Part shown: one piece after another, positions 25,349-26,739 of the stretch
Layout: the number at the start of each line of letters is the position of its first letter
Numbering within the stretch: the first letter of the stretch is position 1
DNA from: Escherichia coli
GTDB taxonomy: Bacteria > Pseudomonadota > Gammaproteobacteria > Enterobacterales > Enterobacteriaceae
Assembly (NCBI RefSeq): GCF_030013595.1
Contig: NZ_CP122768.1
DNA: 64,000 nucleotides
Reading direction: 5' to 3' (one strand)
Notes under the pieces: generated by a model
The model's input: the letters and a program-made list of their open reading frames with translations, nothing else
Database searches by the model: none
Told to the model about the DNA's origin: nothing
Made by a program: the position numbers and the translations under genes

Positions 25349-26503
25349 TTATTCATTTTCATCAAGCCAGTCCGCCCACCACTGCATCATTTCTCTGCGC
25401 TTGTCTAGATACTGAGCATGGTTGTAAATCCCACGCACAGATCCGCCGTTGGCATGTGCCAGTTGCACTTCAATAGCGTCAGCAGGCCATTCGTGCTCGT
25501 TCATAATTGTGCTGAATTCATGCCTGAATCCGTGACCGCTTTCCAGACCCTCATAGCCGATTTGTTTGATCACAAGCAATACCGCGTTCTCGCAGATTGG
25601 CTTCTTCTTATCGTTGCGCCCTGCAAAAACAAACTCTGATACTGGTTTGGTGATGGAGCTTAACGTAGTGAGAAGTTCAACCACCTGGTCTGACATCGGG
25701 ACCACATGAATTTTGCGTCCCTTCATCACGCTGGCGTCGATGGTGATAATCCTGTTTTCAAAATCGACGTTCTTCCATTGCATGGAGCGAAGCTCTTTCG
25801 TTCTTAGGGCTGTATAACGTAAAACTTTTGTCGCAATAAGCGATACGATACTTCCTGAAAATGTTGCCAGTGCTTTGTTGAATGCCGGGATCTGGTCTGC
25901 AGGAAGAAACGGGAAGTTCTTCTTGCGGTATCCTTTCATGGCGTCTGCAAGGTCAGGTGCCGGGTTATATTTAGCCCTTCCGGTGACAATAGCGTAACGG
26001 AAAACCTCTCCGCATCTTCTGCGGGCTTTGTTGGCTCGCTCCATTGCACCGCGATCTTCAAACCTGCGGATTACTTCAAGAAGTTGCATCGGCTCAATAT
26101 CCTGAATTTCAAGACCGCCGATGATGGGTAAAATGTCGTCATCAAACATTTTGGCAAGTTCAGTCGCATACCCTACAGACCAGACTTGCTTCTTGTGCTC
26201 GTACCATTCCTTGTAAATGGCGCTAAAGGAATTGTTGTTAGACGAAGCCTTTTTCGCTTTTACCGGATCGATGCCAACCGAGATGTCTTTCCTCGCAGTC
26301 CATGCTTTATCCCTTGCCTCTTGCAAAGTCATAAGCGGATATTTTCCGACGGTCAGGATTTTCTCCTTACCGTCAATCTTGTAGCGAAGCTGCCATACCT
26401 TTTTCCCGGATACAGGGACATAAAGGTACAATCCATTACCATCGAGAAGGCGGTATGGTTTTTCTTTCGGCTTTGCTGCTTCAATCTGCTTAACGGTGAG
26501 CAT
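25349..26503 (-). CDS. intS: Tyrosine integrase (IntS-type, P4-family)
   Basis: Sequence from MLTVKQIEAAKPKEKPYRLLDGNGLYLYVPVSGKK... recalled as E. coli K-12 IntS; starts downstream of argW 3' end; ORF track extends to an upstream GTG at 26539. Confidence 0.85.
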   Translation of the reverse strand: MLTVKQIEAAKPKEKPYRLLDGNGLYLYVPVSGKKVWQLRYKIDGKEKILTVGKYPLMTLQEARDKAWTARKDISVGIDPVKAKKASSNNNSFSAIYKEWYEHKKQVWSVGYATELAKMFDDDILPIIGGLEIQDIEPMQLLEVIRRFEDRGAMERANKARRRCGEVFRYAIVTGRAKYNPAPDLADAMKGYRKKNFPFLPADQIPAFNKALATFSGSIVSLIATKVLRYTALRTKELRSMQWKNVDFENRIITIDASVMKGRKIHVVPMSDQVVELLTTLSSITKPVSEFVFAGRNDKKKPICENAVLLVIKQIGYEGLESGHGFRHEFSTIMNEHEWPADAIEVQLAHANGGSVRGIYNHAQYLDKRREMMQWWADWLDENE

Positions 26504-26664
26504 GGGTAAAAATCCGGTGGGTAAAATTATTTTATCCACTTTTTACCCGTCATGGAGTGCGGCTGTCAACGATCTGACGCGAACCATTACGAACTGTGAA
26601 TCTACGGAAGGCTTGATATTCAGGGGATTTTGCGGACTGGTACGGATGGGAGCGAACTGATAAA

Positions 26665-26739
26665 TGGTGTCCCCTGCAGGAATCGAACCTGCAATTAGCC
26701 CTTAGGAGGGGCTCGTTATATCCATTTAACTAAGAGGAC
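26665..26739 (-). tRNA. argW: tRNA-Arg (anticodon CCU), argW; phage integration target
   Basis: Reverse complement reads GTCCTCTTAGTTAAATGGATATAACGAGCCCCTCCTAAGGGCTAATTGCAGGTTCGATTCCTGCAGGGGACACCA with full cloverleaf and CCA. Confidence 0.9.

Follow-up and report, generated by a model that had tools for sequence, protein, structure and literature searches.

Probable late arm of a P22-like prophage at argW in Escherichia coli, with a KplE1-type integration module and an uncommon tailspike receptor-binding domain

The window, by which we mean the whole 64,000-nt stretch of Escherichia coli DNA that was analysed, begins with plus-strand genes that from position 1 to 25272 make up a standard P22-like late arm. 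The gene order starts with RusA, the Q antiterminator, a tRNA-Asn/tRNA-Thr pair, holin, endolysin, Rz and a Rha-like gene; it continues with gp3, TerL, a P22 portal, scaffold, coat, gp4, gp10, a needle with an Sf6-type knob, and gp14; and it ends with the ejection proteins gp7, gp20 and gp16, a few small accessory genes, mnt, arc and ant, and finally the tailspike. Pfam and PHROGs matches of the late genes are near full-length over each profile, and no truncated gene or insertion sequence was seen in the visible late arm (1–25272). Coordinates of the main features, including the integrase and attachment site that follow the tailspike, are collected in Table 1.

Table 1. Features of the prophage region at argW, with positions in the window, strand, and the evidence or remarks that go with each feature.
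Feature	Position	Strand	Evidence or remarks
Late control and lysis	1053–3596	plus	Q 1053–1676; tRNAs 1951–2106; holin, endolysin, Rz 2349–3596
Virion module, gp3 through gp16	5404–19430	plus	Pfam and PHROG matches near full-length
immI region	21778–23276	both	Pfam Arc, P22_AR_N, P22_AR_C; PHROG Arc-like repressor
mnt-like gene (immI)	21778–22029	minus	
arc-like gene (immI)	22107–22280	plus	
Antirepressor ant (immI)	22347–23276	plus	
Tailspike, 631 aa	23377–25272	plus	Pfam Head_binding, 5.5e-67
Imperfect inverted repeat (48-nt hairpin)	25297–25344	none	Candidate terminator
intS-type tyrosine integrase, 384 aa	25349–26503	minus	Pfam domains and K-12 IntS identity
Phage-side arm of attL (P′ arm)	26504–26663	minus	4 substitutions relative to K-12 over about 160 nt
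16-nt att core CTGCAGGGGACACCAT, attL crossover region	26664–26679	minus	Overlaps the argW 3′ end
argW, tRNA-Arg(CCU)	26665–26739	minus	ARAGORN and Rfam tRNA match, 63 bits

The affinity to P22 is seen both in gene order and in gene content. Portal, scaffold, coat, gp4, gp10, needle and gp7/gp20/gp16 stand in P22 order, mnt, arc and ant make up an immI region, and the tailspike has a head-binding domain of the P22 type. DNA identity to P22 itself is about 82% over 41% of the query, and the virion genes are about 95% identical to E. coli relatives compared with only about 82% to P22; two contigs from other assemblies (L020 and L022) carry a virion module that is 99.99–100% identical. An earlier note, made from the sequence alone, had described int as joined here to a tailspike and a full virion module, and the Pfam and PHROGs results bear this out: the lysis, head, neck, ejection and immI genes form an uninterrupted set.

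Several accessory elements are interspersed among these genes. The tRNA-Asn(GTT) (1951–2025) and tRNA-Thr(TGT) (2031–2106) genes, both on the plus strand, lie in a 401-nt insert (1777–2177) between Q and holin. Kapi1, mEp506, HK446, Bas106 and several Salmonella phages also carry this pair, which is therefore a common lambdoid accessory element. At 4610–4672 on the plus strand, Rfam identifies an int-alpA RNA motif (42 bits vs. a curated threshold of 35.8, E 1e-5), placed between the Rha-like gene and an 80-aa ORF and distant from any integrase. Between gp16 and mnt, positions 20006–20879 (plus strand) hold a gene with a Panacea domain (SocA-like antitoxin) and, next in order and overlapping it, a partner ORF (PHROG 8366), which together may be a toxin-antitoxin or defence accessory module; the only PADLOC hit among the genes between gp16 and mnt was a weak NsnC match, to the partner ORF.

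The integrase ORF, counted from a GTG, spans 25349–26539, and the start equivalent to that of K-12 is the ATG at 26503. Its product contains the Pfam domains Arm-DNA-bind_3, Phage_int_M and Phage_integrase, the last of these matched over profile positions 2–170 of 172. The protein had been called identical to K-12 IntS, which is nearly the case: 381 of 382 residues agree, the sole substitution being Leu to Gln at K-12 residue 242, and the C-terminal tail also differs (...WLDENE in the window vs. ...WLDEKVE in K-12). Over the flank and int together, DNA identity to K-12 is about 95.5%. Residues 1–383 are 99–100% identical to the integrases of a series of isolated temperate phages, namely Dewey, Bas106, CUS-3, N7, HZ41, Sf6, HF4s, IME10, Kapi1, Louie and HK620; for Sf6, HK620 and CUS-3, the identity is 99.0–99.7%.

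As the earlier note had also proposed, the integrase adjoins argW exactly as in K-12; ARAGORN and Rfam both place the tRNA gene here, and a sequence comparison found it equal to K-12 argW base for base. The target of integration is the 3′ end of argW, which is rebuilt by the phage core. This core, CTGCAGGGGACACCAT, is the one published for KplE1, Sf6, HK620 and Kapi1 (PMC2951348, PMC8787464), and it also bounds CPS-53 in K-12. A search of the 64,000-nt window for a second copy found none (1 match vs. 0.01 expected by chance). The int gene adjoins attL and reads away from the core, and the intervening arm is nearly the same as that of K-12. In KplE1 the P′ arm houses the intS promoter together with sites bound by IntS and TorI (PMC2951348), and by analogy it would have the same function here. 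Two marks of a KplE1-type module are found: an IntS-type integrase with an N-terminal arm-binding domain, and insertion in the argW 3′ end with the core CTGCAGGGGACACCAT. Further along the flank, the yfdF homologue (28978–30252, minus strand) is 424 aa long vs. 352 aa in K-12. Residues 77–129 of the K-12 protein are matched twice in it, at residues 77–130 and again from residue 145, and its C-terminal part is merely 75% identical to K-12.

Taken together, we consider it very probable (roughly 0.88) that positions 1–26679 of the window are the late (right) arm of a P22-like (Lederbergvirus-type) prophage, integrated in the argW 3′ end by means of a KplE1-type module. This reading best explains the order Q, lysis, head, neck, ejection, immI, tailspike, convergent int, P′ arm, 16-nt core and argW. 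RusA and Q are the leftmost genes in the window; the early genes, torI and attR are placed to the left of position 1.

The linkage of the argW/IntS module with intact P22-like phages is already known from published work. The KplE1 att/IntS/TorI module has been described as "highly conserved" in CUS-3, HK620, Sf6, and the APEC-O1 and UTI89 prophages (PMC2951348, PMC3509656), and Kapi1 integrates into argW through the same attP, which leaves int and xis at opposite ends of the prophage (PMC8787464). Kapi1 (vB_EcoP_Kapi1) and the sewage isolates Dewey and CurroJimenez_Bas106 are P22-like podoviruses that use argW and resemble the window in the near-identity of Int noted above, in a tailspike that is directly convergent with int, and in a tRNA-Asn/tRNA-Thr pair ahead of the lysis genes; they differ from it in the receptor-binding domain of the tailspike and in the sequence after the int stop codon. 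Kapi1 also differs in the gap between tailspike and int, where it has a small ORF and a GC-rich hairpin resembling a terminator. Its attP lies between int and xis (PMC8787464), and Sf6, Kapi1 and Dewey are all annotated with this attP position and with the same tailspike/int convergence. Sf6, HK620 and CUS-3 share the int/att/RDF module (PMC2951348, PMC3509656) as well as P22-type virion genes, including the Sf6-type needle knob, but they have other tailspike specificities, and in Sf6 oac is located between int and the tailspike.

The argW prophage of JX2 (NZ_CP173160.1) has the same tailspike allele, hairpin and int, and is 97.6% identical over window positions 23362–28364. This prophage is complete from torI to intS, measures about 39 kb and has a copy of the core at either end. 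Most of its head, ejection and immI genes, however, are different alleles or fall outside the alignment, and the 401-nt insert with the tRNA pair is missing. Directly beside its torI/attR end is a P4-like satellite with a second integrase, ogr/Delta and a DUF927 primase (L003, 1–7075), so that in JX2 the argW site is occupied in tandem.

The arrangement of tailspike, int and argW is also common. In all 30 of the 30 best E. coli matches (complete genomes), tailspike, intS and yfdC lie side by side. The best matches among 5426 complete E. coli genomes cover 68–78% of the query, and a P22-type tailspike head-binding sequence is present in 1133 of the 5426, about a fifth.

The picture changes within the tailspike. 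Its P22 head-binding domain occupies aa 1–113, with the receptor-binding part after it at residues of about 115–631, encoded by 23720–25272; identity to CUS-3 and HK620 is 96% at the N-terminus, and aa 114–574 have at most 33% identity to any phage in the collection searched. A sequence search of the PDB gave no solved-structure match beyond aa 189, and the exact protein is present in just 11 public contigs. Judged by these comparisons, the receptor-binding domain appears to be the sole uncommon element of the prophage.

Tailspike and int converge on a gap of 76 nt between their stop codons (25272 and 25349), and the inverted repeat that had been pointed out there, at about 25298–25345, is real, one base off. 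Its arms of 21 nt are 86% complementary, with 6 nt between them. The repeat folds at −19.7 to −21.2 kcal/mol (z −5.1 to −7.0), a stability reached by none of 200 shuffles, so the fold is beyond chance. The further suggestion that the repeat is a convergent terminator shared by both genes is plausible on the int side, where the stem is followed by AAUUUUUCUC with a U5 run, and stands less well on the tailspike side, where UAUCAAUUAUUCAUUUUC follows the stem and the U tract is poor. We therefore regard the hairpin as a probable int terminator and, with a weaker case, as a terminator of the late operon. It would most likely end the int transcript, and it may limit late-operon read-through into antisense int.

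Alternatively, the hairpin may not be a working terminator at all, but a sequence that came along incidentally with the tailspike module, or a palindrome that serves recombination or protein binding where the modules meet. We take this possibility seriously while inclining against it. The hairpin occurs in 1 of the 5426 complete E. coli genomes, that of JX2, where the copy is identical and there is consequently no covariation, and in a few contigs bearing the same tailspike; found only alongside this tailspike, it is therefore part of the tailspike module. In rl0044 the stop codons of tailspike and int are 4 nt apart and there is no hairpin. The stem is AU-rich with interior loops, a terminator scan of the region did not call the hairpin (its long loop is over the scanner limit), and Rfam has no match at this position. 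Set against these points are a fold that is very stable relative to shuffles, the U5 run noted above for the int strand, and the canonical hairpins at the tailspike stop in Kapi1 and Sf6, which are GC-rich and flanked by A/U-rich runs, the one in Sf6 being an annotated terminator. A promoter-like site that overlaps the hairpin on the minus strand (25295–25322; TTCACA, 16-nt spacer, GATAAT, with TG, 10/12 matches), directed towards antisense tailspike, could be counted in favor of a function other than termination, though we set it aside, as sites of this kind turn up in the region no more often than in shuffled sequence. A scan of IMG/VR for the hairpin returned one provirus, which was rejected as a copy of this phage because it is JX2-like at 97.2% identity.

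Whether the late arm belongs to a functional phage was approached through its relatives. Four contigs from other assemblies (L020–L023), found by looking up the Rha protein, are 99.96–100% identical to the late arm, and one late-arm relative continues to the left into cro, cII, replication and nin genes. The early region of the present prophage is nonetheless not deducible by proxy, because relatives that are at least 99.96% identical in the late region differ left of ninB: L020 and L021, each nearly identical to the window over the late arm, have different immunity and replication modules there. Exact-protein matching with Q (10469 blocks) and the replication protein (4542 blocks), both too common, returned unrelated prophages.

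One further contig (L015; GCA_053635155.1 DBKREJ010000123.1, 4985 bp) has the order ant′, tailspike, int, core, torI, ead. It is 99.97% identical to window positions 22769–26679, and exactly at the core its sequence passes into a torI arm with 97.6% identity to the attR side of K-12, a junction that on its sequence we identify as attP. Reads must span this junction, because the 16-nt repeat is shorter than assembler k-mers. The junction comes from another sample and suggests that a near-identical phage excises; it could derive from excised circles, concatemers or a tandem double lysogen. By extension from KplE1 (PMC2951348, PMC3509656), IntS would be expressed from a promoter of its own within the attL arm and would repress that same promoter, and the excisionase TorI, encoded at the far prophage end to the left of the window, would direct excision. 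After induction, recombination between attL and attR by IntS and TorI would yield a circle in which int and torI flank attP, an outcome that agrees with the junction in L015.

It is also conceivable that the element is a defective remnant, which has kept the late arm but suffered loss or disruption of the early arm, torI or attR, and so can neither excise nor grow. RusA is, after all, the leftmost gene visible, the window holds a single core copy, and true deletion remnants do exist at argW, both in L025 and as CPS-53 in K-12. We nevertheless think a remnant unlikely. All visible late genes are full-length family matches, late regions 99.99–100% identical occur in several independent assemblies (among them the one running into cro, cII, replication and nin genes), and a near-identical right end has been found in attP form. 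The evidence from the relative contigs and L015 leans towards a functional phage. The contig L025 (GCA_977067125.1, 10881–13830) is itself a genuine decay product at argW: here the early arm, reaching from torI as far as a DnaB shortened to 339 aa, has been joined to an int shortened to 246 aa next to yfdC, and none of the late genes is left.

The earlier note stated that in K-12 int is followed by gtrAB-type and other remnant genes, in agreement with the order in NC_000913.3: intS, yfdGHI (gtr genes), tfaS, yfdK–T, torI. Its proposal that the present prophage is the intact relative of this K-12 cryptic element, and useful for reconstructing its decay, did not survive comparison. The alignment of the window with K-12 runs from fadL through yfdC and argW into int, and ends at window position 25356, 8 nt short of the int stop codon. 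The rest of CPS-53 (gtrABS, tfaS, yfdK/L, yfdM–T) finds no match in the window; the features of the CPS-53 lineage, gtrA/gtrB/gtrS beside int, tail-fibre assembly genes and yfdM–T, are absent from it, and past the int stop codon the window has a P22-like late arm where CPS-53 has gtrABS, tail-fibre assembly remnants and yfdM–T. Comparison with the complete P22-like argW prophage of JX2 gave a similar result: only the int end and a 340-bp torI–attR end are common to it and CPS-53, and the interior genes of CPS-53 are unmatched except for one 105-nt stretch at 71%. That interior is SfIV/SfV-like, with best matches to SfIV/SfV (coverage 59–65%) and SfII (47%) at 92–93% identity; the next-best matches are lambdoid early regions, not P22-like phages. 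The same integrase, 98–99% identical, is also found in HK633 and an Stx2 phage, both outside the P22-like group, and the integration module therefore moves between phage types.

That the prophage is the undecayed form of CPS-53/KplE1, from which CPS-53 arose by deletions in such a P22-like phage, is thus highly improbable: the two do share an attachment site, an integrase at 99% identity and a nearly identical attL arm, and torI is common to P22-like argW prophages, but homology ends just short of the int stop codon, the interior of CPS-53 finds its best matches in other phages, its tail-fibre assembly genes tfaS and yfdK have no counterpart in a virion module that bears a tailspike, and the same int is carried by phages of other types. 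By sequence, what the prophage and CPS-53 have in common appears to be the att/int/torI integration module alone, and for this reason modelling CPS-53 as a decayed P22-like phage is inadvisable.

The limit of this shared module can be placed within a few codons. Seven int genes (from the window, JX2, K-12, rl0044, Sf6, Kapi1 and Dewey) are alignable up to ...W-L/I-D-E/G, after which each has its own tail of 0–5 residues and its own downstream sequence (window 25349–25360). Divergence sets in right after this motif, the last 2–5 int codons being different in each genome compared, and thus these codons are supplied by the adjoining cassette; the int 3′ end appears from the alignment to be a sharp exchange boundary. 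A bolder interpretation, which we offer as speculative and on balance improbable, is that the 76-nt gap with its hairpin and the last int codons together form an exchange boundary and two-way insulator, in an active phage whose tailspike recognises a surface polysaccharide so far matched to no studied phage. If true, tailspike or O-antigen-modifying cassettes would be swappable beside a fixed integration module, and the autoregulated int would be kept free of late-operon read-through.

Publications from 2007–2012 onwards already describe the argW/IntS/TorI module that KplE1 has in common with intact P22-like phages, and in this respect the locus adds little new biology. The prophage is a mosaic, in which an integration module common to many phages is combined with a rare tailspike receptor-binding domain. 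An inducible phage of the generalised-transducing type, with an uncommon tailspike, is probably resident in the strain, a point of interest for strain typing, phage susceptibility and O-antigen work.
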